Assembly (NCBI GenBank): GCA_937872895.1
Contig: CALMUP010000008.1
Coordinates: 68,976 to 132,975, forward strand
Reading direction: 5' to 3'
From: an uncultured Verrucomicrobiota bacterium
GTDB taxonomy: Bacteria; Verrucomicrobiota; Kiritimatiellia; CAIVKH01
Length of the DNA stretch: 64,000 nucleotides
Positions 20,276-52,020 of this stretch are shown here, piece after piece. The number at the start of each line of letters is the position of its first letter. The first letter of the stretch is position 1. Made by a program: the position numbers and the translations under genes. The notes beneath the pieces were generated by a model, which searched no databases, had not been told where the DNA came from, and worked only from the letters and a program-made list of their open reading frames with translations.

Positions 20276-20673
20276 CGCCCTTCGACTACGCTCAGGGCAT
20301 TCGACGCGGATGGCCCGCCATGAGCAAGCTGAACGAAGTGAAGCGCGTCGAGTCGTGGTGTCTTCATCGTATATCTAAAGTTCGCCCTTCGACTTCGCTC
20401 AGGGCATTCGACGCGGATGGCCCGCCATGAGCAAGCTGAACGAAGTGAAGCGCGTCGAGTCGTGGTGTCTTCATCGTATATCTAAAGTTCGCCCTTCGAC
20501 TTCGCTCAGGGCATTCGACGCGGATGGCCCGCCATGAGCAAGCTGAACGAAGTGAAGCGCGTCGAGTCGTGGTGTCTTCATCGTATATCTAAAGTTCGCC
20601 CTTCGACTTCGCTCAGGGCATTCGACGCGGATGGCCCGCCATGAGCAAGCTGAACGAAGTGAGGCGCGTCGAA
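20276..20673. repeat. Tandem array, about 3.7 copies of a 107-bp unit
   Basis: Units at 20276-20382, 20383-20489 and 20490-20596 are near-identical. The fourth, partial unit merges into the 3' flank of tRNA-Ser. Copies are identical with no unique spacers, so this is not a CRISPR array. Confidence 0.85.
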
Positions 20674-20768
20674 TGGCGGAGAGAGAGGGATTCGAACCCT
20701 CGGTACCTGGTTAACCCAAGTACAAGTGATTAGCAATCACTCGCATTCGACCACTCTGCCATCTCTCC
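20674..20768 (-). tRNA. tRNA-Ser (anticodon GCT), type II with long variable arm; CCA encoded
   Basis: The reverse complement folds as GGAGAGA / D-arm / anticodon stem AGTGA, loop TTGCTAA, TCACT / long variable stem / T-arm GAGGGTTCGAATCCCTC / acceptor / G / CCA. Confidence 0.85.
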
Positions 20769-39097: not shown

Positions 39098-39499
39098 CTA
39101 CTCCTTGAATTTGAACGCGTGCGGGAGCAGTCCGCCCATGGTCAGGGAATGGATGTCCTCCGGATGCTTGACCGATGCGACATAAACCGGCGTGTCGGCC
39201 CGCAGGAACTCGCTCAACACCTGGCGGCAGGCACCGCACGGGAAGGCAATCGCATCGCCGTCGGCCACGATCGCCACCGCCTTGAACGAGGAGATCCCCC
39301 GGGCCACCGCGGCAAAGATCGCGTTGCGCTCGGCACAGATGGTCAGGCCGTAGGAGGCGTTCTCGACATTGCAGCCGGTGATGATCTCCCCGTTGTCGGC
39401 GAGCAAGGCCGCGCCGACATGGAAGTTCGAGTAGGGCGCGTAGGCGCGCCGCGAAACCTCTACCGCGGCGGCGACGAGTTTGTGGGCGATGTCGTTCAT
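39098..39499 (-). CDS. cdd: Cytidine deaminase
   Basis: …CAERNAIFAAV…PCGACRQVL… zinc-binding motifs. 133 aa. Confidence 0.9.
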   Translation of the reverse strand: MNDIAHKLVAAAVEVSRRAYAPYSNFHVGAALLADNGEIITGCNVENASYGLTICAERNAIFAAVARGISSFKAVAIVADGDAIAFPCGACRQVLSEFLRADTPVYVASVKHPEDIHSLTMGGLLPHAFKFKE

Positions 39500-40323
39500 G
39501 CGCGGGCCATCTCCTCCCAGAAGCGACCGATCATCGCGATCATCTTCGGCATGGTCTGCCGCGAGGTCTCGGTGACTTCCTCATGGCTGAGCGGATGGGC
39601 GCTGATCCCGGCCGCCGCATTGGTGATGCACGACAGGCCGGCCACCCGCAAACCGGCGGCATTCGCGAGCAGGGTTTCCGGAACGGTGGACATACCCACC
39701 GCATCGGCACCGAGCGTCCGGAAGGCGCGGATCTCGGCCGGTGTTTCATAAAACGGACCGGACGAGGCGAGGTAGACGCCTTCGGCGGCGGCGAGCCCAC
39801 TCGACAACGCGGCGCGCTTCAACGCGGCGCGCATGGCGAGATCGTAGGCATTCGACAGGTCGGGGAAGCGCGGTCCCCAGCAGGGATGGTGCGGACCGAT
39901 CAACGGATTTGCGCCCATGTTGTTGATGTGATCGGAAAGGACCATCAGCGAACCGGGTTTCAGGTCGGCCCGTACCCCGCCTGCCGCATTGGTCAGCAGC
40001 ACCCACGACGCGCCCAGCTGCTTCAGCAGGTAGACTGGAATCGCGACCGGGGTCCAGCCTTCGCCCTCGTAGTAATGGCGGCGTCCCTGGAACACCAGGG
40101 TCGTGATGCCGGCCGCTTCGGCGAGGATCAACTTGCCGGAATGGCCGACCACCCCGGTCTTGCCGAAGCCGGGGATGTCCTCGTAGGGGATCGTGGCGTG
40201 TACAGTGAAGTTGGTCAGGACATCGCCCCAGCCGGAGCCGAGGATCAAACCGGCGGTCGGTTTGGGCTGGTTGAGTCGCTTGCGGACAACGTCCGCGGCC
40301 TGTTCGAGGACTTGAATGTTCAT
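39496..40323 (-). CDS. punA: Purine nucleoside phosphorylase (PNP family I, PunA/XapA-type)
   Basis: …ILGSGWG…GHSGKL…LTNAAGG…MSTVPE…. 275 aa. Overlaps cdd by 4 nt. Confidence 0.9.
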   Translation of the reverse strand: MNIQVLEQAADVVRKRLNQPKPTAGLILGSGWGDVLTNFTVHATIPYEDIPGFGKTGVVGHSGKLILAEAAGITTLVFQGRRHYYEGEGWTPVAIPVYLLKQLGASWVLLTNAAGGVRADLKPGSLMVLSDHINNMGANPLIGPHHPCWGPRFPDLSNAYDLAMRAALKRAALSSGLAAAEGVYLASSGPFYETPAEIRAFRTLGADAVGMSTVPETLLANAAGLRVAGLSCITNAAAGISAHPLSHEEVTETSRQTMPKMIAMIGRFWEEMARA

Positions 40324-40334
40324 GGTCGGACCTT

Positions 40335-41639
40335 TCAGCGGAGGGTTTCCAAAACGGCGGGGGCGTGCGGTACGGGATTGGCGGAGAAGCGGAAGGCGGC
40401 CGCGATAAGTTGTTCCGCCTCGGCGAGCTTCTGCTTGTCGTTGGCGTGGATCATCAGCAGCGGCTGGCCTTTCTCCACCCGGTCGCCAACCTTGACGAGG
40501 TCGGAGATGCCGACGGCGAAATCGACCGGATCCTCGGTCCGCTTGCGGCCCGCGCCCAGCACGATGCAGGCGCGGCCGATGCCCTCGGCATTCACCTCGG
40601 CGACATAACCGGCGTGTGGCGCGTTGAACTCCTCCACGATGGAGGCGTGCGGCAGGCGCGACAGGTCATCGATCGCCGCGACATCGCCGTGTTGCAGCCG
40701 GACCATCTCGCGGAACCGCGCCAGGGCTTCGCCGTTCTTGAGCTTCTCGCGGCAGGCGCGGTCGAGTTCGACCGGATCGCGGTCCGGATAGGAGAGCATG
40801 ATCATCTCGACCGCGAGCAATACGGTCAGGTCCACCAGATCGGCCGGACCCCGGCCACGCAGTGTCTCGACCGATTCGATCACCTCAAGGGCATTGCCCG
40901 CAGTGCGGCCGAGCGGCTGGTTCATGTCGGTGATGATCGCGGAGACCTTCCTGTTCATCGCCTTGCCTACGTTGATCATCGACTGGGCGAGGGCACGGGC
41001 GTCCTCGCGTGTCTTCATGAAGGCCCCGGCACCACACTTCACGTCAAGCACGAGGGCATCGATGCCTTCAGCCATCTTCTTGCACATGATGCTGGCGGTG
41101 ATCAGCGGGATCGACGGCACCGTCGCGGTCACATCGCGCAATGCATAGAGTTTCTTGTCGGCGGGGGCCAGCCGGTCGGTCTGGCCGATGATCGAGCATC
41201 CGCACTGCTTGATGACATCGATGAAGTGCTTCTCGGCAATCTTCGCCTGGTAGCCGGGAATCGATTCGAGCTTGTCGAGGGTGCCGCCGGTGATGCCGAG
41301 GCCGCGCCCGGAGATCATCGGCACGGCGATGTCGAAGCAGGCGACCAGCGGGGCCAGCGGCAGCGACACCTTGTCGCCGATGCCGCCGGTCGAATGCTTG
41401 TCGGCCTTGGGCAACGGGATGCTCGACGTGTCCACGAGGTCGCCCGAACGCATCATCGCATCGACCAGCACCGAGACCTCGGCCGGATCCATCCCCTTGA
41501 AGTAGATGGCCATGGCCAGGGCCGACATCTGGTAGTCGGGAATGGTTCCCTTCGTGTAGCCATCGATAAACCAGCGAATCTCCTCGCTGCTCAGGGCTTT
41601 TCCGTCGCGTTTCTTCTCAATGATCCATTGGGGCAGCAT
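40335..41639 (-). CDS. deoA: Thymidine/pyrimidine-nucleoside phosphorylase
   Basis: …KRDGKALSSEEIRWFIDGY…HSTGGIGDKVSL…. 434 aa. Confidence 0.9.
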   Translation of the reverse strand: MLPQWIIEKKRDGKALSSEEIRWFIDGYTKGTIPDYQMSALAMAIYFKGMDPAEVSVLVDAMMRSGDLVDTSSIPLPKADKHSTGGIGDKVSLPLAPLVACFDIAVPMISGRGLGITGGTLDKLESIPGYQAKIAEKHFIDVIKQCGCSIIGQTDRLAPADKKLYALRDVTATVPSIPLITASIMCKKMAEGIDALVLDVKCGAGAFMKTREDARALAQSMINVGKAMNRKVSAIITDMNQPLGRTAGNALEVIESVETLRGRGPADLVDLTVLLAVEMIMLSYPDRDPVELDRACREKLKNGEALARFREMVRLQHGDVAAIDDLSRLPHASIVEEFNAPHAGYVAEVNAEGIGRACIVLGAGRKRTEDPVDFAVGISDLVKVGDRVEKGQPLLMIHANDKQKLAEAEQLIAAAFRFSANPVPHAPAVLETLR

Positions 41640-41656
41640 GGTGGGTCTCCGTCGGG

Positions 41657-42832
41657 TTAGACAAACGATACGCCGCGGGTGACCGGCTTGATGCCGAACA
41701 GCGTGGCGATAGATTGGGCGATGTCGTAGTAGCCGTTGCGCACACCGAGCGAGACACCCGGCTTGCCGCGTCGGTACAGCAGGACCGGAACGGCCTCGCG
41801 GGTATGGTCGGTACCCTTGTAGGTCGGGTCGTTGCCGTGGTCCGCAGTCAGGATGAGCACATCGTCATCGGCCAGGGTCGGAATGAATCCGGCCAGCCAG
41901 GCATCGGTCTGGCGCAGGCAGTCGGCGTAACCCTGCGGATCGCGACGATGCCCGTAGATCATGTCGAAGTCGATGAAGTTGGCGAAGATCAAGCCGTTGC
42001 CCGGTTCCTTCATGAACACCTCGACCGCCTTCTGGGAGTCGCGGTTGTTCCCGGTGTGGTTCGACTTGGTAACGCCGCGGTGGGCGACAATGTCCTCGAT
42101 CTTGCCGACGGCATACACCGGAATGCCGGCTTCGGTCAGCCGCTCCAGCACGGTTGCCTCGGCGGGCTTGAACGCGTAGTCGCGGCGGTTTTCCGTGCGC
42201 GTGAAGGCACCGGGTTTGCCGAGGAACGGGCGTGCGATGACCCGGCCGACGCGGTAGGGGTCGCACAGTTCGCGGGCGATCTCGCAGGCGCGGTAGAGTT
42301 CCTCCAGCGGGATCACGTCTTCATGGGCGGCGATCTGGAACACGCTGTCCGCGCTGGTATAGACGATCCATTTCCCTTCGACCATTTGACGGGCGCCGAA
42401 TTCATCGATGATGCCGGTCCCGCTGGCCGCCTTGTTGCCGAGGATGCCGCGCCCGGTGCGCTCCTCGAATTGGCGCACCAGTTCATCCGGGAAGGAGGGT
42501 GGACCGGGCGGGAATAGGTGGAAGCCGGGGATGAGTTCGAGCCCGACAATTTCCCAATGGCCGGTGACCGTGTCCTTGCCCTGCGATTGCTCGATCATCG
42601 TGCCGAAACTTGCCTCGGGTGCATCGACCGGTGCTACGCCGGGGATAGCGGGTGACCCGGGCAACAGGACGGGGATGTTGCCGAGGCCGAGGCGTTGCAG
42701 GACGGGGAGGTTCAAACCGCCCACCGCCTGGCCGATGTGGGGCAGGGTGGCGGCACCTTCATCGCCGTAGGCGGCGGCATCCGGGGCATGGCCCACGCCA
42801 ACGGAATCCAAAACGATCAATACCACTTTCAT
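41657..42832 (-). CDS. deoB: Phosphopentomutase
   Basis: MKVVLIVLDSVGVG…, 391 aa, alkaline-phosphatase-superfamily DeoB. Confidence 0.9.
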   Translation of the reverse strand: MKVVLIVLDSVGVGHAPDAAAYGDEGAATLPHIGQAVGGLNLPVLQRLGLGNIPVLLPGSPAIPGVAPVDAPEASFGTMIEQSQGKDTVTGHWEIVGLELIPGFHLFPPGPPSFPDELVRQFEERTGRGILGNKAASGTGIIDEFGARQMVEGKWIVYTSADSVFQIAAHEDVIPLEELYRACEIARELCDPYRVGRVIARPFLGKPGAFTRTENRRDYAFKPAEATVLERLTEAGIPVYAVGKIEDIVAHRGVTKSNHTGNNRDSQKAVEVFMKEPGNGLIFANFIDFDMIYGHRRDPQGYADCLRQTDAWLAGFIPTLADDDVLILTADHGNDPTYKGTDHTREAVPVLLYRRGKPGVSLGVRNGYYDIAQSIATLFGIKPVTRGVSFV

Positions 42833-42922
42833 AGGCTGTCTCCGTGGTTGGGTTGCGCCGCCATGACGTCGTGCATGTTAACGCATCATCGCGCGACGCG
42901 GTAGCACAATCAACGCAATCGG

Positions 42923-43192
42923 CTAGGTCCGGTTGAGCTGGTCCACGATGCCGACGATTACCGAACGGACCGGTGCGGTGGGGTCACCCAGCACCTGGCG
43001 GGCTCCGGTTCCCTCATCGAGAACAAGGACCGGTTCGCCGATGCCGGCCCCGACGGAATCCACCGCGATCAGGTAATCCCCGCCCGGCTTTCCCTCGGGA
43101 TTGTGCTTCTCCACCATCAGGAGTTTTTTCCCGTCGTAAAACGGGTGGTTGATCGTTGAGTAGATGTTGCCGATGACGACGCCGGTGATCAT
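42923..43192 (-). CDS. BMC vertex protein (BMC-P; EutN/CcmL/PduN family)
   Basis: MITGVVIGNIYSTINHP…GKKLLMV……GDYLIAVDSVGAGIGEPVLV…. 89 aa. Confidence 0.85.
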   Translation of the reverse strand: MITGVVIGNIYSTINHPFYDGKKLLMVEKHNPEGKPGGDYLIAVDSVGAGIGEPVLVLDEGTGARQVLGDPTAPVRSVIVGIVDQLNRT

Positions 43193-43473
43193 GGTGTGCC
43201 TGCCTCGTTGCGGGTGATGCCGTCCACGATGCCGATGATCGCGTGATCGACCGGGACGAACGTCGTGTCCAAGGCCATGGCCGCCTCGCGGCCTCCTTCG
43301 TAATAAACGGTCTCGCCTGCGCCGGCCATCCGTGTGGCATCGGCCGCGACCAGCGCCTTGCCCTTCGGCTGGCCGTTCTTGTCGAGCGGCTGGACCAGTA
43401 GCATCGGCACGCCGCCGAGGCCTTCGTAGATGTCGCAGGGGACAACGGTTCCGATGACTTTGCCGAGCATCAT
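43189..43473 (-). CDS. BMC vertex protein (BMC-P), second paralogue
   Basis: MMLGKVIGTVVPCDIYEGLGGVPMLLVQPL…ALVAADATRMAGAGETVYY…. Strong RBS aggagagagg before the internal ATG; the 154-aa track ORF was rejected. Confidence 0.8.
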   Translation of the reverse strand: MMLGKVIGTVVPCDIYEGLGGVPMLLVQPLDKNGQPKGKALVAADATRMAGAGETVYYEGGREAAMALDTTFVPVDHAIIGIVDGITRNEAGTP

Positions 43474-43474
43474 A

Positions 43475-44086
43475 TCAAGTCCTCTCTCCTTCGAGTTCGA
43501 GGGCGGTGGCTTCGTGGAAACGGGTCGAGCCGTTGATCTGGCGACCGAGGGCTTCGTGGGGTGCGGTGAGGATCCGGTGGGTGAAGACCACCCCGGCGTG
43601 TTCGAGGAAGGCTGCGGCGAGGTCCACTGCGGCCTCGATATCATGCAGGTCACCCTCGTAGATGCTCAAGCCCTTGCCCGCGAGCCCGTCATCGGCCAGG
43701 CGCAACTCGATCAGCGATACCGGGGTGCCTTTGAGTGCGGCCTCGGCGGCCCGGACATTCGCGGAAACCGAGGAGGTCTCGATGATCGCCCAGGCTCCGT
43801 CACGGGTCGCCGCACGGCGACCGAACATCGCCGCAAATACGTCGGGATGCACATCGGGGAGAAACACCTTGTCGATCAGCGCCTGCCCGGCCCAGAACTG
43901 GCCTTCGGCATAGGCCTCCTCGACGGCGGCGGTGGAGCCGCCGATAACGGTCAGGTAACGCCCGCGGGTGATCGTTCCGTTCTTCAGGAAGGCGATCGGC
44001 GCTTTCTTGAGCATGGCATCGGTGGCCTGGATTCCCGAGGGAATGTCCAGGAACTCCAGGATGGCCACCGCGGGGAAGGGCTTCAT
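43475..44086 (-). CDS. Tandem-domain BMC shell protein (BMC-T)
   Basis: Two BMC (PF00936-like) domains: AVAILEFLDIPSGIQATDAMLKKAPIAF… and AWAIIETSSVSANVRAAEAALKGTPVSLIELRL…. The start codon overlaps the AldDH stop (TGATG). Confidence 0.7.
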   Translation of the reverse strand: MKPFPAVAILEFLDIPSGIQATDAMLKKAPIAFLKNGTITRGRYLTVIGGSTAAVEEAYAEGQFWAGQALIDKVFLPDVHPDVFAAMFGRRAATRDGAWAIIETSSVSANVRAAEAALKGTPVSLIELRLADDGLAGKGLSIYEGDLHDIEAAVDLAAAFLEHAGVVFTHRILTAPHEALGRQINGSTRFHEATALELEGERT

Positions 44087-45537
44087 CAGGTGATCCGGAA
44101 GTGGTCGACCAGCACGCAGCGGCGCCACCGCGAGAAGCTGCGCGGTCCGGTGAGGCCTTCGCCGGTCGGGCTGGCGATGGTGAACGAGCAGTAGCCTTCG
44201 CCACCGAGGCCGAGTCCCGCCTGGGAGCGGCCATTCTTGACGAAGATGCTGCAGTTGCATTCCTTTGCCATGCGGTGCAGTTTGTCGATGTTGCGCGAGT
44301 GCATGATCGCGGTGTGGCGGTTGCCGCCCTCGGTCTTGAGGGCGAGGTCGATCGCGTAGTCGGCATTCGGTACGCGGCAGACCGGCAGGATCGGCATCAT
44401 CTGTTCGGTCCAGAGCAGCGGATGGTTCTCGTCGACTTCGACGATGCCGAGGCGGATCGAGCTCGGGACATTGATGCCGATCTTCGCGAGGATCACGTCG
44501 GCGTTCTTGCCGATCAAGTCGCGGTTGATGTGGGCCTCCTTGCGGGGTCCGTGCATTTCGGTGAAGATGACTTTCTCCAGCGCGGCGAGCTTGTCGGGAC
44601 CGATCAGCACCGCATTGTTCTGGGTCATGGCCTGGACCAGCCGGTCGGCCACGCTCGACACCACCAGCACCTGTTTCTCGTCGGCGCAGATAATGTTGTT
44701 GTCGGTCGAGGCGCCGAGCACGATGTCGCGCCCGGCCTTGTCGATGTCGGCGGTCTCGTCGACGACCACCGGCGGGTTGCCAGGGCCGGCGCAGATCGCG
44801 CGCTTGCCGCTGGTCATCGCCGCCTTCACCACACCGCCACCGCCGGTCACCACGACCAGGCGGATATCCGGATGCTTCATCGTGGCGTTGGCGCTCTCCA
44901 CGGTCGGGCTGGCCACGCAGGTGATGGTGTTCGCCGGGCCGCCGGAATCGACGATGACCTTGTTGATCAGCGCGACGGTCTGCATGGAGCAGTTCTTCGC
45001 GGTCGGATGGACGTTGAAGACCACCGTGTTGCCGGCGGCGATCATGCCGATGGTGTTGCAGATGATCGTCGAGGTCGGGTTGGTGCAGGGGGTGATCGCG
45101 CCGATCACGCCAAACGGGGCGGGCTCGAGCAGGCAGAGGCCGTGGTCGCCGGTGATGGCCTGCGGTTCGAGGTGCTCCATGCCCGGGGTCTTTTCCGTCA
45201 CCAGGATGTTCTTGGTGATCTTGTCCTCAAAGCGGCCGAGGCCGGTCTCGGTATGGGCCGCCTTGGCCAGCGGAGCGGCGTGCTCGAGCATCGTCTTGCG
45301 GATGTTGGCGATGATCGTGGCGCGGGTCTTGAGGGGCAGGGCGACGAATACCGGTTGCGCGGCCTTGGCGGCCTTCACCGCTTCATCCACGGTGGCGTAG
45401 ATGCCGAGGGCCTGTTCCAGGGGCGGTGCCCCCGAGGCGCTGGTCGCGGCGGGGCTGCCCGGTTCCCGGTTCAAGTCCGCAACGATGCGCTGGGCGATCG
45501 CATCGATTTCCTGGTCGGTCAATCTGGCCATAATCAC
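44086..45537 (-). CDS. CoA-acylating aldehyde dehydrogenase (EutE/PduP family) with N-terminal encapsulation-peptide-like helix
   Basis: 483 aa with an ALDH fold and a catalytic Cys region. The N-terminus ARLTDQEIDAIAQRIVADL (amphipathic) is followed by a Pro/Ser/Ala linker. Confidence 0.85.
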   Translation of the reverse strand: MIMARLTDQEIDAIAQRIVADLNREPGSPAATSASGAPPLEQALGIYATVDEAVKAAKAAQPVFVALPLKTRATIIANIRKTMLEHAAPLAKAAHTETGLGRFEDKITKNILVTEKTPGMEHLEPQAITGDHGLCLLEPAPFGVIGAITPCTNPTSTIICNTIGMIAAGNTVVFNVHPTAKNCSMQTVALINKVIVDSGGPANTITCVASPTVESANATMKHPDIRLVVVTGGGGVVKAAMTSGKRAICAGPGNPPVVVDETADIDKAGRDIVLGASTDNNIICADEKQVLVVSSVADRLVQAMTQNNAVLIGPDKLAALEKVIFTEMHGPRKEAHINRDLIGKNADVILAKIGINVPSSIRLGIVEVDENHPLLWTEQMMPILPVCRVPNADYAIDLALKTEGGNRHTAIMHSRNIDKLHRMAKECNCSIFVKNGRSQAGLGLGGEGYCSFTIASPTGEGLTGPRSFSRWRRCVLVDHFRIT

Positions 45538-45638
45538 ACCTCGAACGACGGCGAAGGATCAACAACCGGGCATGCACCGGGCCATCAGCCCGTGGCACCC
45601 GTGCGTGCCATGCCCTGCGATGTTGCTCCTGTCCGCTA

Positions 45639-45926
45639 CTACTTTTTGTACTTGGTCGCGTTGCCGACGTTCCACGTGTCCACGATGCCCATGACCACGG
45701 CGTCCACCGGACGCTTGTCGGTCATCTGGGTCTGGCGCGCGGAACTGCCGGACGCGATCAACACGATTTCCTCGGGACCCGCGCCGACGGCGTCGGCCGC
45801 GACGAGGATCGAGCCGGTTTCCCGGCCTTCCTCGTCAACCGGCCGCACCATCAGGAATTTCAGCCCGTCGAGGCTGGACTCCTTGCGCGTCGACACGACA
45901 GTCCCGACCACTTTGGCGAGTTGCAT
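45639..45926 (-). CDS. BMC vertex protein (BMC-P), third paralogue
   Basis: MQLAKVVGTVVSTRKESSLDGLKFLMVRPVD…ILVAADAVGAGPEEIVLIASGSSAR…. 95 aa. Confidence 0.85.
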   Translation of the reverse strand: MQLAKVVGTVVSTRKESSLDGLKFLMVRPVDEEGRETGSILVAADAVGAGPEEIVLIASGSSARQTQMTDKRPVDAVVMGIVDTWNVGNATKYKK

Positions 45927-45963
45927 AGTGATCCCATCTCCCGCACGGGGCGGGATGGACTGG

Positions 45964-46263
45964 TTACTTCTTGGCCTTGGCGTCGGGGGCGCGGCCGAGC
46001 GGCATCACCGCATCCACGTTGGCGTGGGGGCGGGCAATGACGTGGATGGCCACGACTTCACCGATGCGTCCGGCAGCGACCTGGGCGGCGTCGCAGGCGG
46101 CCTTGACCGCGGCCACATCACCGCGAACAACCACGGTGGTGAAACCGCCGCCGGTCTTCTCGTAGGACACCAGTTCAACCTTGGCCGCTTTCACTGCGGC
46201 ATCGGCGGCTTCCACGACCGCCGGGAACGAACGCGTCTCGATCATGCCTAATGCTTCCGTCAT
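45964..46263 (-). CDS. BMC hexamer shell protein (BMC-H; PduA/EutM-like)
   Basis: [57 protein letters not shown]… is the canonical BMC-H sequence. Confidence 0.9.
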
Positions 46264-46373
46264 GTTCTCTCTCCGTTTGGGTTATACTTGCTACTGCTCA
46301 TTGAACGTATGGGTTTGGGCGCCCACTCCGGGCCTTTTCCGTTCCCATCAACCATGAACCATTCTCCTTCGGC

Positions 46374-47000
46374 CTACCGTCCCTTGACCACGCGGCCGGT
46401 GACCGCTTCGATGGCCTTCTCGGCGGCCCGGTACCCGACATCGATATCACGCTCCTCCCCGCCGAGGTAGAGGCGCCCGACCGCGCCGACCGCGCGCACT
46501 TCGAGAATATTGATGTTCGCGGCCTTTTCGGCCTCGTTCGCGGCGATGGCGGCGTACCCGGCCGGCGCGCACTCCATCACGTACAGGGAGTGGCCGGGCA
46601 GGATCATGTCGCCGTGGCGGGTGCGGTTGATCAACTGGGTGTGGTAGTCGGAAATGTTGCGGATCACCTCGCTGGTGTAGATCTCCGGCTTGATGCGGTC
46701 CTCCTCCTTGAGGCCAAGGTGCTCGAGGATGGCCCGGCCGGCCTCGCGCACTTCCGACTGTTCGTGGGAGTGGAGTTCCAGCATGCCGAACTGGCGTTCG
46801 ACGATCAGCATGCCGGGCGTGACGTTGGTCGCCTTCAGGGCGACGTCGGTCATGCGCATGATGTCCATGCCGGGGTTGATTTCCACGAAGAGGGCGGCCT
46901 GGCCCGGGGTGGGGAGGAAGCCCTGCGCGACCGTTCCGAGGAACGACGCGAATTGCGGCTGCAAGCTGTCGAGAAACACGTAACAACGCAGTTCGGCCAT
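46374..47000 (-). CDS. Permuted tandem BMC shell protein (EutL/PduB-like BMC-T)
   Basis: About 208 aa. Segments …ALFVEINPGMDIMRMTDVALKATNV… and …GHSLYVMECAPAGYAAIAANEAEKAANINILEV… parallel the two permuted domains of EutL. Strong RBS ggaagaaggag before the ATG at 47000; the upstream extension in the track ORF was rejected. Confidence 0.6.
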   Translation of the reverse strand: MAELRCYVFLDSLQPQFASFLGTVAQGFLPTPGQAALFVEINPGMDIMRMTDVALKATNVTPGMLIVERQFGMLELHSHEQSEVREAGRAILEHLGLKEEDRIKPEIYTSEVIRNISDYHTQLINRTRHGDMILPGHSLYVMECAPAGYAAIAANEAEKAANINILEVRAVGAVGRLYLGGEERDIDVGYRAAEKAIEAVTGRVVKGR

Positions 47001-47023
47001 GGTGATACTCCTTCTTCCTTCTG

Positions 47024-48298
47024 TTATTTGCCGGCCAATGCCTTGGCCTCTTCCATTATCTTCACACTGCTGCTGCAACCGACGCGGGTCGCGCCGGCGT
47101 TGACCATCTTGATGACATCGGCGTAGGTGCGCACCCCGCCCGAGGCCTTGACCCCGAGTTTCTTCGGCGCGGTCACCCGGGCCATCAGCGCGATGTCCTC
47201 GGCGGTCGCGCCGCCGGTGGACATGCCGGTCGAGGTCTTCACGTAGTGGGCGCCGCCCTTCATGCTCAATTCACAGGCGCGGACCTTCTCCTCGTCGGTG
47301 AGCAGGCTGTTCTCGAAGATCACCTTGCACAGGGCGCGCGCATCGTTGCAGTCCTCGACCACGCCGCGGATGTCCTGCAGGACCAGCTTGTCGTCCTTGC
47401 TCTTGAGTGCGCCGATGTTGATAACCATGTCGATCTCCTGGGCGCCGTCGCGCAACGCACGCCGGGTCTCCAGGGCCTTGATCTGCGGGGTCACCGCACC
47501 CAGCGGGAATCCGACCACCGCGCAGACCTTGACCGACGAACCGCGCAGCAGCGTGCGGGCCAGTTTCACCCACATCGGGTTCACGCAGACCGAGAAGAAG
47601 TTGAACTGGAGCGCTTCCTTGCAAAGTTTTTCGACATCCGCCTGCGAGGCGTCGGCCTTCAGGATGGTATGATCGATCAGCTTGCAGAGTTTCTCCGGCG
47701 GAATCGGGGCGCCGCCGGCAGGACGTCCGGTCGGGCCGCCGGCGATCATCGACTTCACACGGTCGGCGATGCGTTGGACGTCTTCGGGGCTCAGGTTGGA
47801 TGGCATGGATGCGCTCATATGCGTTCTCTCGATTTCCTTGATAAGGTTCACCCGGGCGATGTGCCGCTCCGCGGTGTGTTCGGTGGACAGGAAAACAGCG
47901 GCGATCTTCTTGGCGTCCTCCAGACCGGTCTGGCCGGAACCGAGGGTGAGGAGGTTCGCCCCGTTGTGCTCGCGGGCATTGCGGGCGAGGGCTTCGTTGT
48001 AGCAGGCGGCGGCGAGTACGCCGGGATGCTTGTTCGCGGTCATCGCGGATCCGATGCCCGCACCGTCGATCATGATGCCGAAATCGGCCTTGCCGGACGA
48101 CACCGCGGCGGCCACCAGGGAGGCGAATCGTGGATAGTCCACGGGGTCCTTGCCGTTTGTGCCAACGTCCTGGACGGAGTGTCCCAAGCCGGTCAGTAAG
48201 GGGATCAACCCCTGCTTGGTCTCGAAGCCTCCGTGGTCAGCGCCAATCGCTATCCGTACACTTCGGGTCATCAGTTGCAGCATGCTTGGCCATGTCAC
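47024..48298 (-). CDS. Fusion protein: RpiB/LacAB-family sugar-phosphate isomerase (N) + deoxyribose-phosphate aldolase DeoC/DERA (C), with internal encapsulation-peptide-like helix
   Basis: N-terminal domain IAIGADHGG…[17 protein letters not shown] (RpiB fold). The linker …[41 protein letters not shown]… contains an amphipathic helix. C-terminal domain [12 protein letters not shown]…FFSVCVNP…[17 protein letters not shown]…VKASGGVRT (DERA, with both catalytic Lys present). Confidence 0.8.
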
Positions 48299-48419
48299 CC
48301 TGCTACGTCAACCGAAATCGGCTACCAATTGCTGTTTAACGTTTTAACGAAAAGGCTTTACCTGCACGAAACCTAAATGACAAGGATTCGGCTTGGACGA
48401 AACCGGAGCTGGAACTGGT
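48299..48419 (-). promoter_or_regulatory. Promoter region of the BMC/deo operon with AT-rich direct repeat GTTAAAAC-GTTAAAC
   Basis: Only AT-rich patch in the locus: (minus strand) …cgttaaaacgttaaacagcaattggtagccgatttcggttgacgtagc…. Candidate operator plus a TTGAC-like -35. Confidence 0.3.
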
Positions 48420-50141
48420 TCAGCTCCGGGGCTGATCGCTCTCATTCTCGTCTGGTTGGGAGGCTTCGGCGGGTTGACGACGAAGATTATCCACGAAGCC
48501 GGATTGGCGGAGGATGTGTTGCTGCAGGTCAGCGAAGGCGACACGGCTGAATTCGCGGCGCAACATCGAGGTGATTTGCTGCTGCATCGCGCTGTATCCG
48601 CCCGGGTCGGCGGAAGGGGTGCGGGCGGCGACATAGCCGAGCAGGATGCCGTCGTCGGTCTGGATCAGTTCGGTCAATTCGTTCTGGTTCAGGACGAGAA
48701 TCGGGCGGACCAGGTTTGAGGCCAGCTCCTCATCAATCTTCATGTCGCTGATCGTGAAGGGCTCGAGCTTCTCGCTGGATAGGCCGTAATCAGCCAGTAC
48801 CTGGTTGAACGTCAGGCCAACCGCCAGGCCGGCCACAACGCTCTCGCGGATTTCCTGGGCCTTTTCGGTAAGCGCATTGTAGACGGCAAACTCACGGGCC
48901 ATCAACGTCACGTCGTTCTTTACTTCCTCGAATTCGGGGACGCGTTCCGGAATTCGTTCCTGCAACGCCAGGACATAGACATAATTCGATCCCTTGATCG
49001 GATCACTGTAAAAGTAGTCGTTGTCGTCCGACAGGCTGAAGGCGGCGCGCACGAGGTCGGCGCCGGCTTCGAGACCTTCCGGGCGTTGAGCGACGGTGAA
49101 CGGTTTGGGCAGGACCAATTCCACGCCGAACTCGGAAGCAATCTGGTCAAAAACGGAGCGTCCCTGGGCGTGACGCTCGGAAACCTGTTGGACAAACCGG
49201 TTGGCTTCCTGCTCGGCCTTGACCCGGGCTTCGATGGCCGTAAGGGTGGCGCGGATTTCGCCGGAAACCTCGTCCAGCGGTCTGTACACCGCACCGGCCA
49301 GCGAAAACGAATTGGTCGCAGGTTCGTCCGGGGTGGTGGTGAATTTGTCGAGGTTGAAGTCGTAGTACTCCTTGATCTCGGCTTCGGTGATCTCGATGGT
49401 GGCGGCGTAGTCCGCGATCGGGAACACCGCAGCCTTGACGCTGACCTTTTCCGCGAGGGTAAAGACCGAGGGATCCTTGGAGAAGTAGGCAAGAACGTCT
49501 TCCTCGGACACGGTAACCTCATCGGAGACGATCGCCGGGGAAAGGTTCACGTATTCGACCGTGAAGGTGTCGGTGAGGGTGCTGTAGGTGCGTTGGATTT
49601 CCTGAGGGGTCACCAGCAGCATCCGGTCGGTGATCACCCGGAACTTCTGCAGGACGATCTCCTGGCGGATATGTTCATCGAACATCTTCTTGCTGGCGCG
49701 TCGAGGTGCGAGGAACTGCTGGTAGAATCCTTCGTAGGCTTGCGGGTTGAACTTTCCGTTGGTCTGCAGGAATTCAAGCGATTGGATCGCCCGCACAACC
49801 TCGTCGTCGGTGGCGGTGATGCCAAGCTTTTCCGCCTCGCGCAAGGTCGCCAGCCGCTGCCAGGCCATCTTGTAGAGTTCCTCGTCCACTTCAGGCGTGA
49901 TGTTGATGTCGCGGCCCGACATCAGGACAATCGACAGGTAGGTGTGAAACCGCATGCGCTGGAAGTCCTCGAAACTGACCGACGCGCCGTCGAGTTGCCC
50001 CGCGGCATTCTTCGCCCGGTCTTCCGCCGTCGGCATCGTGGTACCCCAGATCACGAACGAGAAGATGATCACGACCAGGAAAAACAGCCAGAGGAGCTTG
50101 CTCTGAATCAAACGATGAAATTTCGTAATCAGCATGGCCAT
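48420..50141 (-). CDS. Membrane-anchored periplasmic chaperone / peptidyl-prolyl isomerase (PpiD/SurA-like)
   Basis: 573 aa with an N-terminal TM anchor and a SurA_N-like region (…FEDFQRMRF…YKMAWQRLATLREAEKLGI…). Confidence 0.65.
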   Translation of the reverse strand: MAMLITKFHRLIQSKLLWLFFLVVIIFSFVIWGTTMPTAEDRAKNAAGQLDGASVSFEDFQRMRFHTYLSIVLMSGRDINITPEVDEELYKMAWQRLATLREAEKLGITATDDEVVRAIQSLEFLQTNGKFNPQAYEGFYQQFLAPRRASKKMFDEHIRQEIVLQKFRVITDRMLLVTPQEIQRTYSTLTDTFTVEYVNLSPAIVSDEVTVSEEDVLAYFSKDPSVFTLAEKVSVKAAVFPIADYAATIEITEAEIKEYYDFNLDKFTTTPDEPATNSFSLAGAVYRPLDEVSGEIRATLTAIEARVKAEQEANRFVQQVSERHAQGRSVFDQIASEFGVELVLPKPFTVAQRPEGLEAGADLVRAAFSLSDDNDYFYSDPIKGSNYVYVLALQERIPERVPEFEEVKNDVTLMAREFAVYNALTEKAQEIRESVVAGLAVGLTFNQVLADYGLSSEKLEPFTISDMKIDEELASNLVRPILVLNQNELTELIQTDDGILLGYVAARTPSADPGGYSAMQQQITSMLRREFSRVAFADLQQHILRQSGFVDNLRRQPAEASQPDENESDQPRS

Positions 50142-50261
50142 GAGAGGGCCCTTTCTATGAACAGGTTACCAATCGATCAACAATAGCCGGGCAGACTACC
50201 CGGTCACGGCAAACCCGTCAATGCGAAGTCCTGAGGGAGGAGAGCCGAAAAAAGGGGAAAA

Positions 50262-50337
<76 letters not shown>

Positions 50338-50568
50338 ACAGGTGATCGAGGGTGCGTTTATAGCCAGCGATGGCGTTTCGTGCAACAAAAAGTTGAACTC
50401 CTGCGATCCGGACCGGAAATAGGTTGCGCAGTATTCCATCCCGGGGATGACCGGTCGTTGCCGCCAGCCGGCCTGTGGGGCGGCCAATCCGTATTGAGCC
50501 TCCCGGGTCCTGGAATGCCTGAAGCCGCTTCCGCTTTCCTTTCCACGGGCATTCGTTAAGGTGGGGTC

Positions 50569-52020
50569 ATGCGCGAGGTCGTTGTTCACGGTTGGCCCTA
50601 CTTCGTGGCGGGCCTCGGTTTGTTGATGTCGCTGCTGACCTCGGGTCATGCGATCATCTACAAGCGCGACTCCCGTGCCGCCGTGGGGTGGGTCGGTCTC
50701 GTCTGGCTGGCCCCGTTTGTCGGGCCGCTTTTGTATGTCCTGCTCGGCATCAACCGGATCCACAGGAAAGCCGCGGGGATACGCGGTGACGAATGCGAGC
50801 ACATGGCTTCCGTGGCGTCGTTCACCTGTTCGCCGGTTGACCTGGCCAACCACCTGCCGGATGGTCATGGCCACCTCGCCAGCCTGGCCCAGGTCGGAGA
50901 GCAACTGACCCGGCTCCCCTTGCTCACGGGCAACCGTGTCGATGTCCTGTGCGATGGCGATCAAGCCTACCCGGCCATGATCGAGGCCATCGAGGCGGCG
51001 GAACGGTCGGTCTCGTTGACCTCGTACATCTTCGACAATGATCGCGCTGGCCGTCGGTTCGTCGAGGCGCTGGCCGCCGCAGTCAGGCGCGGGGTCCAGG
51101 TGCGTGTGCTGATCGATGCGATCGGCGCCCGCTATTCAATCCCTCCCGTCACACAGAATCTCCGGGCGCAGGGCGTCCGGGTGGCCCGATTCATGCCTAG
51201 CAATGTGCCGTGGACTACACCGTATGTGAACCTCCGCAGCCATCGCAAGATCCTGGTCGCGGATGGCCGGGTCGGCTTTACCGGCGGGATGAATATTCGT
51301 GAAGGCAGCATGTTGTCGCTGAATTCAGAACATCCCGCTCGCGATGTGCATTTCCGCGTGACGGGACCGGTGGTGCAGGAGTTGCAGGCCACCTTTGTCG
51401 AGGATTGGTATTTCACCACCGGCGAACGGCTGTCCGGTGACGGTTGGTTTGCCCCGGCCGAGGACGTCGGATCGGTCATCGCACGTGGTGTGCCCGACGG
51501 ACCCGACAAGCACTACGACACGATGCGCATGGCCTTTCATGCCGCGTTGTCCGTGGCGCAACGATCGGTACGGATCATCACGCCCTACTTCCTGCCGGAC
51601 GCCGCCCTGATCAGCACGTTGAACACCTGTGCGATGCGCGGGGTACCGGTGGATATCATCCTGCCGGAAACCAACAACCTGAAAATGGTGGCCTGGGCAT
51701 CCATGGCCCAGATGTGGCAGGTTCTTGAGTGGGGTTGTAGGGTTTGGTTGACCCCGCCGCCCTTTGATCATACCAAGCTTTTTGTCGTCGACGGTGCCTG
51801 GTCCATGATTGGCTCGTCCAACTGGGATCCTCGCAGCCTGCGGCTTAATTTCGAATTCGGGGTCGAGTGTTACGGCGTGGAACTGGCGAAACGGCTTGAT
51901 GCACTGGCCGAACTGCGCATGCGGGAAGCGCGCCGCCTCACGTTGGAGGAGGTGAACGGTCGTTCCCTCCCGGTTCAATTGCGGGATGGCGGAGCCCGCC
52001 TGTTTGCCCCGTACCTGTGA
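50569..52020 (+). CDS. cls: Cardiolipin synthase (PLD superfamily)
   Basis: Two N-terminal TM helices and two HKD motifs (…LRSHRKILVADG…; …DHTKLFVVDGAWSMIGSSNWD…). Confidence 0.9.
   Translation: MREVVVHGWPYFVAGLGLLMSLLTSGHAIIYKRDSRAAVGWVGLVWLAPFVGPLLYVLLGINRIHRKAAGIRGDECEHMASVASFTCSPVDLANHLPDGHGHLASLAQVGEQLTRLPLLTGNRVDVLCDGDQAYPAMIEAIEAAERSVSLTSYIFDNDRAGRRFVEALAAAVRRGVQVRVLIDAIGARYSIPPVTQNLRAQGVRVARFMPSNVPWTTPYVNLRSHRKILVADGRVGFTGGMNIREGSMLSLNSEHPARDVHFRVTGPVVQELQATFVEDWYFTTGERLSGDGWFAPAEDVGSVIARGVPDGPDKHYDTMRMAFHAALSVAQRSVRIITPYFLPDAALISTLNTCAMRGVPVDIILPETNNLKMVAWASMAQMWQVLEWGCRVWLTPPPFDHTKLFVVDGAWSMIGSSNWDPRSLRLNFEFGVECYGVELAKRLDALAELRMREARRLTLEEVNGRSLPVQLRDGGARLFAPYL

Follow-up and report, generated by a model that had tools for sequence, protein, structure and literature searches.

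A candidate SPU3-type bacterial microcompartment operon that continues into nucleoside-catabolism genes in an uncultured Kiritimatiellia bacterium

Sugar-phosphate-utilizing (SPU) bacterial microcompartments (BMCs) are among the most widespread BMC types, and their in vivo substrate is still a predicted one. Which sugar phosphate does such a compartment receive, and from which enzymes? This question is raised by a 64,000-nucleotide stretch of DNA (here, the window) from an uncultured Kiritimatiellia bacterium of the Verrucomicrobiota (assembly GCA_937872895.1, contig CALMUP010000008.1, positions 68,976 to 132,975). On its minus strand, 12 consecutive co-directional open reading frames (ORFs) at 39098-48298 encode a fusion of an RpiB-like domain with deoxyribose-phosphate aldolase (DERA), six shell proteins, an aldehyde dehydrogenase (AldDH), and the nucleoside-processing enzymes DeoB, DeoA, PunA, and Cdd. 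An original prediction, made from the sequence alone, had read this locus as an SPU-like compartment linked to deoxynucleoside breakdown. Our analysis indicates that the 12 genes probably form a single operon, which encodes an SPU3-type catabolic BMC and, toward its 3′ end, a set of cytosolic feeder enzymes. The shell/DERA/AldDH core is thereby joined to four enzymes that make the DERA substrate from nucleosides, and this join is conserved across a clade of the Planctomycetes-Verrucomicrobia-Chlamydiae (PVC) superphylum and recurs elsewhere in another arrangement. It offers independent genomic support for the published model of DNA and deoxynucleoside scavenging and leaves the current picture unchanged.

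That model has been built up over a decade. SPU loci were defined by the presence of DeoC, RpiB, and AldDH and tied to the catabolism of deoxyribose-5-phosphate and DNA (Axen et al. 2014); more than 280 loci in seven subtypes were later cataloged, with metabolism of DNA degradation products as the proposed function (Sutter et al. 2021, PMC8217296). Curation of 206 loci (Dwyer et al. 2024, PMC11585597) revealed an RPI-DERA chimera (RPI, ribose-5-phosphate isomerase) in 20 SPU3 loci, represented by one from Verrucomicrobia, a CcmP-like BMC-Tdp in SPU2/3, N-terminal AldDH encapsulation peptides (EPs) in all subtypes but SPU6, and a PduS homologue that is frequent in all subtypes except SPU6; that study also states that deoxyribonucleosides are degraded by the BMC and places deoB upstream of it. 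A 2025 bioRxiv preprint (PMC12747264) presents the same scheme for archaeal SPU-type compartments, with a cytosolic nucleoside phosphorylase and phosphodeoxyribomutase, and the label “BMC involved in DNA degradation” is already in use for loci of this kind in papers on metagenome-assembled genomes. Nucleoside phosphorylase, phosphopentomutase, and cytidine deaminase genes inside SPU loci receive no mention in the main texts, and a full-text search for microcompartments together with phosphopentomutase, or with nucleoside phosphorylase and DERA, turned up no paper on their linkage. The pointer to deoxynucleosides or DNA in the original prediction is supported, but both this hypothesis and the RPI-DERA chimera had already been published, and its remark that the class lacked any experimentally shown function no longer holds, since an SPU6 DERA is active on 2-deoxyribose-5-phosphate (dR5P) in vitro (PMC11585597). 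The operonic deo extension is therefore corroboration of a published model and no new system. The features of the locus are listed here in transcription order, with the evidence for each.

48397..48429, minus strand: terminator-like hairpin (fold of 48300-48430)
48272..48396, minus strand: leader and putative promoter region (alignment A2; Rfam; sigma-70 scan)
47024..48271, minus strand: RpiB-like/DERA fusion gene (PF02502 + PF01791; TIGR00126; alignment A1)
47840..48253, minus strand: RpiB-like domain of the fusion (alignment to five solved RpiB structures)
47741..47794, minus strand: inter-domain amphipathic helix, then a Gly/Pro-rich linker (encapsulation-peptide-like)
47027..47689, minus strand: DERA (DeoC) domain of the fusion (BLASTP against E. 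coli DeoC; solved DERA 8qps)
46374..47000, minus strand: BMC-Tdp, permuted, double-stacking, CcmP-like (CcmP structures; NCBIfam CcmP; PF27545 CsoS1D_N)
45964..46263, minus strand: BMC-H hexamer shell protein (PF00936, 96.7 bits; EutM/CcmO/CsoS1-like in NCBIfam)
45639..45926, minus strand: BMC-P pentamer paralogue 1, P1 (PF03319, 109 bits)
44086..45537, minus strand: CoA-acylating AldDH (PF00171; PRK15398, 646.6 bits; 5jfl)
43475..44086, minus strand: BMC-Ts, PduT-like tandem-domain trimer (two PF00936 domains; PduT structures)
43189..43473, minus strand: BMC-P pentamer paralogue 2, P2 (PF03319; gene calls in L081/L082)
42923..43192, minus strand: BMC-P pentamer paralogue 3, P3 (PF03319, 84.5 bits)
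42833..42922, minus strand: P3-deoB spacer, 90 nt (scan for terminators; folding)
41657..42832, minus strand: deoB, phosphopentomutase (PRK05362, 507 bits; TIGR01696, 462 bits; full-length)
40335..41639, minus strand: deoA/pdp, thymidine or pyrimidine-nucleoside phosphorylase (PRK05820, 570 bits; TIGR02644, 565 bits; three Pfam domains)
39496..40323, minus strand: punA, purine-nucleoside phosphorylase, inosine/guanosine type (PRK08202, 329 bits; TIGR01697, 292 bits)
39098..39499, minus strand: cdd, tetrameric-type cytidine deaminase, last gene of the unit (TIGR01354, 148 bits)

The 12 genes lie in the predicted order and direction, and every gene call was verified with Pfam and NCBIfam. The ORFs carry, in turn, a LacAB_rpiB + DeoC fusion (47024-48298), a weak BMC match (46374-47078), BMC (45964-46263), EutN_CcmL (45639-45926), Aldedh (44086-45537), a two-domain BMC protein (43475-44260), EutN_CcmL twice (43189-43653 and 42923-43192), Metalloenzyme (41657-42832), Glycos_trans_3N/Glycos_transf_3/PYNP_C (40335-41639), PNP_UDP_1 (39496-40323), and dCMP_cyt_deam_1 (39098-39499). 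The enzymes clear their NCBIfam cut-offs: 275.7 bits against 117.3 for deoC, 647 against 403 for EutE-type aldehyde dehydrogenase, 507 against 256 for phosphopentomutase, 570 against 269 for thymidine phosphorylase and 565 against 409 for its pyrimidine-nucleoside phosphorylase subfamily, 329 against 218 for purine-nucleoside phosphorylase, and 150 against 74 for cytidine deaminase. Gene starts were corrected from the alignment and public gene calls: the fusion begins at ATG 48271 (MTRSV, alignment A1), at 48283 (a 419-aa public call), or at GTG 48298; Tdp at 47000; AldDH at 45537 or 45531; Ts at 44086; and P2 at 43473. Over 21.3 kb the window is 100% identical to NCBI GCA_035324265.1 contig DAOLCB010000008.1 and to an ENA assembly. 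The public NCBI annotation (L081 3891-4616) gives only a 241-aa “deoxyribose-phosphate aldolase,” omitting the RpiB-like domain and the encapsulation-like helix, where the ORF is intact for 415-424 aa; the fusion gene is an example of the start-site annotation problem described for BMC enzymes by Dwyer 2024 (PMC11585597).

The signature enzyme carries an intact aldolase. In a BLASTP comparison with the E. coli DeoC sequence, the equivalents of D102, K137, K167 (Schiff base), and K201 are all present; the domain matches the solved DERA 8qps with 256 bits, and its catalytic columns are invariant in alignment A1. Compared with five solved RpiBs, the RpiB-like domain retains D9, H10, H99, N100, R133, and R137 and has exchanged Cys66 for Asp and Thr68 for Ala (E. 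coli numbering). The motif IDGAGIGS, with Asp and Ala at these two positions, is invariant in 16 of 16 aligned fusions (A1). In NCBIfam the domain passes the rpiB subfamily models and narrowly misses the rpiB equivalog TIGR01120 (130.7 bits, below 138.65). We consider that the domain is probably no ribose-5-phosphate (R5P) isomerase and most likely serves as a packaging or binding partner of DERA. 2-Deoxyribose-5-phosphate cannot undergo aldose-ketose isomerization. All SPU RPIs carry the Cys66→Asp exchange, and an SPU6 RPI is essentially inactive, while the DERA of the same locus cleaves dR5P in vitro (Dwyer 2024, PMC11585597).

Both core enzymes bear elements that resemble targeting sequences. 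AldDH matches its closest solved relative, aldehyde dehydrogenase 5jfl, with 443 bits from near residue 43 onward; its catalytic Cys is conserved. We take 5jfl to be the BMC-associated CoA-acylating enzyme of Rhodopseudomonas palustris. The preceding N-terminal extension of ~40 residues consists of an amphipathic helix (LTDQEIDAIAQRIVADL) and a Pro/Ala/Ser/Gly linker, and since this is the usual form of encapsulation peptides, it looks like one and would direct AldDH into the shell. The inter-domain helix of the fusion closely resembles this AldDH N-terminus, with L169, S170, D173, R176, R180, and V181 conserved as columns in A1. It is encapsulation-peptide-like and may package the fusion likewise; the corresponding helix of the SPU3 chimera has been read in the same way (Dwyer 2024, PMC11585597).

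The shell genes of an SPU locus are present together: Pfam and public gene calls agree on a single BMC-H, a pair of BMC-T proteins, and a BMC-P triplet (EutN_CcmL). Tdp matches CcmP (5lsr/4ht5) with 256 bits and the Haliangium ochraceum (HO) protein HO-5816 in 5v74 with 240 bits, scores 312.7 bits against the NCBIfam CcmP model (cut-off, 340), and conserves the gating Glu-Arg pair (…IVERQFG…). Ts matches PduT (3n79/6fdb) with 113 bits. A PduT-type Fe-S center was considered for BMC-Ts and rejected, because the protein contains zero cysteines. The three BMC-P proteins are distinct paralogues with pairwise identities of 34-43%, P1 being 43% identical to both P2 and P3.

By gene content, we class the locus as an SPU3-type BMC. 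It combines the shell genes, a DERA with its catalytic residues, an RpiB-family fusion with Cys66→Asp, and an acylating AldDH, which mark SPU loci, with the SPU3 hallmarks of an RPI-DERA chimera, a CcmP-like Tdp, and the absence of phosphotransacylase (PTAC) from the locus. PduS, an SPU3 accessory that is frequent and not defining, was not found at 12.4-51.6 kb of the window or among 10 large ORFs elsewhere in it. Pfam, NCBIfam, and the catalytic residues thus agree with the original prediction that the signature enzyme of an SPU-like locus is DERA and not a class II fuculose/rhamnulose aldolase. The Planctomycetes and Verrucomicrobia microcompartment (PVM, fucose-rhamnose type) was rejected as a class, as no class II aldolase (PF00596) is found in the 12 proteins or their neighbors.

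The verified gene identities and active sites support the predicted flow from nucleosides through dR5P to glyceraldehyde-3-phosphate (G3P), acetaldehyde, and acetyl-CoA. DeoB, DeoA, PunA, and Cdd align with the full length of their NCBIfam models and carry no extensions; with nothing to suggest encapsulation, they are presumably feeder enzymes of the cytosol. There, Cdd would deaminate (deoxy)cytidine, DeoA (pyrimidine) and PunA (purine) would phosphorolyse (deoxy)nucleosides to (deoxy)ribose-1-phosphate, and DeoB would convert the latter to (deoxy)ribose-5-phosphate. The dR5P would then enter a shell of BMC-H, PduT-like BMC-Ts, gated CcmP-like BMC-Tdp, and three BMC-P proteins, inside which it would be split into G3P and acetaldehyde by the fusion's DERA domain, brought there by the inter-domain helix. 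AldDH, targeted by its encapsulation peptide, would oxidize the retained acetaldehyde to acetyl-CoA with formation of NADH, and G3P and acetyl-CoA would leave for central metabolism. Thymidine, deoxycytidine, and deoxyinosine are candidate test substrates, and Kiritimatiellia and Lentisphaerae are candidate lineages.

How such a compartment would recycle its cofactors is less apparent from the locus. No PTAC (PF06130) is encoded across the 21-kb annotated neighborhood; at 12.4-51.6 kb and among the large ORFs elsewhere in the window there is no alcohol dehydrogenase, PTAC, or BMC-linked triose-phosphate isomerase, and no PduS homologue (Complex1_51K/RnfC/SLBB) occurs at 12.4-51.6 kb or in 10 large ORFs elsewhere. 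The only triose-phosphate isomerase gene in the window belongs to an ordinary tpiA-secG pair, ~26 kb downstream of cdd. Because PTAC, alcohol dehydrogenase, and PduS were not found and BMC-Ts lacks an Fe-S ligand, exchange of NAD+ and CoA through the Tdp pore, a proposal from the literature, would be the default. The locus thus points both to the role of the RpiB-like domain and to cofactor recycling without these three enzymes. A NupC/NupG transporter and a DeoR/CytR-type regulator are likewise missing between the PpiD-like and PP2C genes that flank the locus and within ~10 kb, and there is no nuclease or nucleotidase in the locus. The predicted “complete” catabolic set therefore overstates its content, which includes no transporter, nuclease or nucleotidase, regulator, PTAC, alcohol dehydrogenase, or PduS.

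The spacing of the genes is operon-like. The junctions measure, in transcription order, 23, 110, 37, ~101, −1, +1, −4, 90, 17, 11, and −4 nt, so that “tiny or overlapping,” as they had been described, fits most of them and fails for three (110, ~101, and 90 nt). The start of Ts overlaps the stop of AldDH by 1 nt, and P2 overlaps P3 by 4 nt. The 90-nt gap between P3 and deoB, at which the shell genes pass into the deo genes, is no longer than two gaps within the undisputed shell/enzyme core (110 and ~101 nt). A terminator at 42832-42923 had been named in advance as grounds for splitting the locus at this point. A consensus scan of the minus strand of the spacer found no terminator, promoter-like site, or U-run, its folding (z = −0.73) is no better than that of shuffles, and a GGAGA ribosome-binding site stands 6 nt before the deoB ATG; the reading as one unit stands.

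At the upstream end, a hairpin with a 9-bp GC-rich stem and a 9-nt loop, followed by UUUCGU, lies directly after the stop codon of a PpiD/SurA-like gene; the fold of 48300-48430 has z = −3.2, with 1 of 200 shuffles equally stable. This hairpin probably marks the upstream operon boundary, and its position after the PpiD-like stop suggests a separate start for the BMC operon. In the leader (48300-48396), a stretch, …CGTGCA…CTAAAACGTTAAACA…TTGACG…, is common to the two closest relatives, L083 and L084, and not to more distant ones (A2), and conservation makes it a possible promoter or operator; no consensus sigma-70 site was found in the leader. Rfam scans of the window and its leader gave two tRNAs and neither a riboswitch nor any other known RNA, so that this possibility was rejected as well.

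To what extent is the arrangement shared? The fusion matches more than 8000 database proteins and is present in at least 592 GTDB species genomes of many phyla ([IV]DGAGIGSA being one of two search patterns). We compared the 12 proteins of the window by tblastn with 80 loci (L001-L080), the best tblastn matches from a GTDB scan, a set that does not include the closest species of the window. In most of these loci, from Acidobacteriota to Marinimicrobia, the eight-gene core (fusion-Tdp-H-P-AldDH-Ts-P-P) keeps its collinear order. Four relatives outside this set, L083, L084, L085, and L087, have all 12 genes of the block and, upstream, the PpiD-like gene; their fusions are 88%, 83%, 72%, and 69% identical to that of the window; their outer flanks differ despite the kept block. 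L088 has the same block with two inserted genes. The P3-deoB spacer measures 95 nt in L083, 42 in L084, 6 in L085, 13 in L087, and 3 in L088, and 5-29 nt in L005, L007, and L009; L005, from Lentisphaerae, has an identical gene order and a 5-nt spacer. This synteny supports, at the level of gene order, one transcription unit.

A second arrangement occurs in L045 (Planctomycetota) and L050 (Granulosicoccus), where two purine-nucleoside phosphorylase paralogues and deoA follow the core, with cdd also present in L045. The fusions of these two loci are 76% and their DeoA proteins 72% identical, and from this identity across phyla the nucleoside module appears to have traveled with the core. DeoA and fusion identities run in parallel in general (65 vs 64-65%, 50-53 vs 48-49%, and 72 vs 76%). 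With a roughly estimated background of 0.5% for any such gene within 5 kb of a random locus, the chance of at least two independent deo occurrences in 40 loci is p ≈ 0.02, and that of five is p ≈ 2e-6, the loci being phylogenetically linked. In seven loci (L040, L042, L053, L062, L064, L070, and L073; five Marinimicrobia, one Lentisphaeria, and one unclassified), a full-length SorC regulator, whose best NCBIfam match is the Bacillus-type DeoR (334 bits, below 420), lies directly upstream of the fusion. A PfkB sugar kinase stands beside the core or fusion in five Woeseiaceae loci.

We weighed this reading, a single operon that feeds an SPU3-type compartment with dR5P, against three others. The two halves may be independent of each other, an SPU3 BMC operon and a housekeeping salvage operon deoB-deoA-punA-cdd that stayed adjacent by vertical inheritance in one PVC lineage; we hold this to be unlikely, though it is the most serious of the three. 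It would account for the 90-nt spacer and for the fact that most loci with the eight-gene core (Acidobacteriota, other Verrucomicrobiota, Woeseiaceae, Marinimicrobia, etc.) lack deo genes within 5-10 kb, and an unrelated PpiD-like gene is equally conserved upstream in the same clade, so synteny alone can persist there. Against it, neither a terminator nor a promoter-like site was found in the spacer, whose length falls to 3-6 nt in L085, L088, and L005; loci of Planctomycetota and Gammaproteobacteria have, behind the core, a second nucleoside module in another gene order, which seems to have been transferred together with the core; and the product of DeoB is the exact substrate of DERA. “Hard-wired,” the term of the original prediction, thus applies to one clade and not to most loci with the eight-gene core. 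More improbable still is a different main substrate, such as ribonucleoside-derived R5P handled by the Asp-bearing RpiB-like domain, with DERA promiscuous or synthetic. The phosphate-binding and ring-opening residues and the Asp of that domain are invariant, PunA, DeoA, DeoB, and Cdd also yield R5P, and the role of RPI was left open by Dwyer 2024 (PMC11585597). Yet Pfam finds no transketolase or other enzyme in the locus that would link R5P or ribulose-5-phosphate to an aldehyde, an SPU6 RPI with the same Cys→Asp exchange had negligible R5P isomerase activity (PMC11585597), and the DeoC domain scores far above the deoC equivalog cut-off with all catalytic residues intact. That the shell genes are a relic or form no closed organelle, with the fusion and AldDH soluble in a normal deo pathway, is highly improbable: the fusion can exist away from shell genes, since 13 of the 80 loci have it with no shell gene in the available sequence, but in the window six shell ORFs are intact and translationally coupled, their proteins are 50-88% identical to cross-phylum orthologues in conserved order, and encapsulation-peptide-like elements are kept on both the fusion and AldDH.

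Several observations nevertheless weigh against the single-operon compartment fed with dR5P. Deo genes are found in only 4 of 39 species-level loci (L005, L007, L045, and L050), these 39 being the loci with at least 4 kb downstream among the 51 with the full core, and because of this low count the deo link is lineage-specific and could in part be inherited synteny; the count comes from a biased sample, the 80 best tblastn matches, and L009, in which deoB stands at the contig end, lies beyond it. DeoA, PunA, DeoB, and Cdd also act on ribonucleosides and have a role in salvage, and the locus does not account for the recycling of NAD+ and CoA. The strong conservation of sugar-phosphate-binding residues in the RpiB-like domain fits poorly with a purely structural role. 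It is tempting to assume that this domain has a new activity tailored to dR5P, either furanose ring-opening or substrate capture and hand-over to DERA, and that the deo-extended operon is a complete, self-contained, phylum-crossing deoxynucleoside-to-acetyl-CoA organelle module; we regard this bolder version as speculative and rather doubtful.

Among known systems, the window is closest to SPU3 (PMC8217296, PMC11585597). It shares with the chimera of Verrucomicrobia bacterium ADurb.Bin018 the N-terminal RPI and the DERA-derived inter-domain helix, and with SPU3 loci the CcmP-like BMC-Tdp, BMC-Ts, BMC-H, BMC-P triplet, N-terminal AldDH EP, RPI Cys66→Asp exchange, lack of PTAC, and a host from the PVC superphylum. 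Unlike published SPU3, the operon of the window continues into deoB-deoA-punA-cdd, on which the main texts are silent, and there is no PduS homologue nearby. The only SPU enzymes characterized biochemically are those of SPU6 from Chloroflexi bacterium GWB2_54_36 (Dwyer 2024, PMC11585597), which have in common with the window the D/K/K active site and EP-like extension of DERA, the Cys→Asp exchange of RPI, AldDH, three BMC-P, and BMC-Tdp. The SPU6 locus, however, encodes RPI and DERA as separate proteins that associate with each other, has the EP of AldDH at the C-terminus, includes a GntR/UTRA regulator, differs in the clades of its shell proteins, and comes with no described deo module. The Hodarchaeales compartments (PMC12747264) are likewise proposed to rely on a cytosolic phosphorylase and mutase to feed dR5P to encapsulated DERA and AldDH, but there the feeder enzymes were inferred genome-wide and have no operon link, the fusion partner of DERA is a flavoprotein domain, and PTAC and MNdh (a PduS homologue) are present.

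The shell of the window has the composition of the H. ochraceum BMC shell in 5v74 (BMC-H, BMC-Ts, BMC-Tdp, and three BMC-P), its Ts matching 5dih, presumably an HO protein, and its Tdp matching HO-5816 as given above; unlike the window, the main HO locus lacks DERA and RPI. Classical deo/dra operons, such as deoCABD of E. coli and dra-nupC-pdp of B. subtilis with its SorC-family repressor DeoR, have nucleoside phosphorylases, phosphopentomutase, and DERA in common with the window, and in them deoC shares a transcript with the genes whose products supply the DERA substrate. In the window, by contrast, DERA is fused to an RpiB-like domain, seven shell/AldDH genes stand between DERA and the deo genes, acetaldehyde would be handled by a dedicated encapsulated AldDH, and the locus has no transporter or DeoR/CytR regulator. 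DeoR-like regulators do adjoin the same core in seven other loci.

Other neighbors of the core and fusion vary. No accessory gene flanks the core universally across phyla, a candidate that we therefore rejected; the neighbors are clade-specific and include the DeoR-like regulator, HTH_34, PfkB kinase, hypoxanthine phosphoribosyltransferase, and a TonB-dependent receptor. In 12 loci the fusion has a divergent hypoxanthine phosphoribosyltransferase gene beside it, and in 10 of these the available sequence contains no shell gene. The 13 loci with a fusion and no shell or AldDH gene in the available sequence (up to 10 kb on each side, several contigs being much shorter) are L039, L043, L052, L055, L058, L060, L061, L066, L068, and L075-L078, mostly from Pyrinomonadaceae and other Acidobacteriota, with one from Anaerolineae. 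Ten of these 13 have a hypoxanthine phosphoribosyltransferase gene within ~6 kb upstream, on the opposite strand in almost every case. Such fusion-only loci may be satellites or represent a form without a compartment. An extra ~0.8-0.9 kb is present in the BMC-P1/AldDH interval of some loci from Opitutales and other Verrucomicrobiota (L016 12697-13621, L017 4524-5418, and L023 12667-13453), and L017 also has ~4.7 kb between Ts and P2. The two genes inserted between deoB and deoA in L088 (16826-18118 and 18293-19627; 430 and 444 aa) have no Pfam or NCBIfam match.

The genes on either side of the operon are housekeeping genes. Upstream are the PpiD/SurA-like chaperone, tRNA-Lys, and a phospholipase D-type synthase; downstream, a convergent PP2C phosphatase ending 31 nt from cdd is followed by RecD2, GtrA, GreA-like, RluA, IF-1, and MutL. 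All PVC-clade relatives examined (L005 2445-4235, L009 8126-9928, and also L083-L085, L087, and L088) have the PpiD/SurA-like gene (window 48420-50141, minus strand) in the same place, immediately upstream and in the same orientation, and the genes beyond it differ between these relatives. A probably spurious 248-aa ORF at 50218-50964 (minus strand) matches no family and overlaps tRNA-Lys (50262-50337). Two exact-protein look-ups for genes in the outer part of the window gave no match. Farther away, a 107-bp tandem repeat of 3.7 copies with 99% identity (20276-20672) adjoins tRNA-Ser (20674-20768, minus strand); overlapping BLAST alignments with L086, another assembly of the same organism, suggest that its copy number differs between the two.

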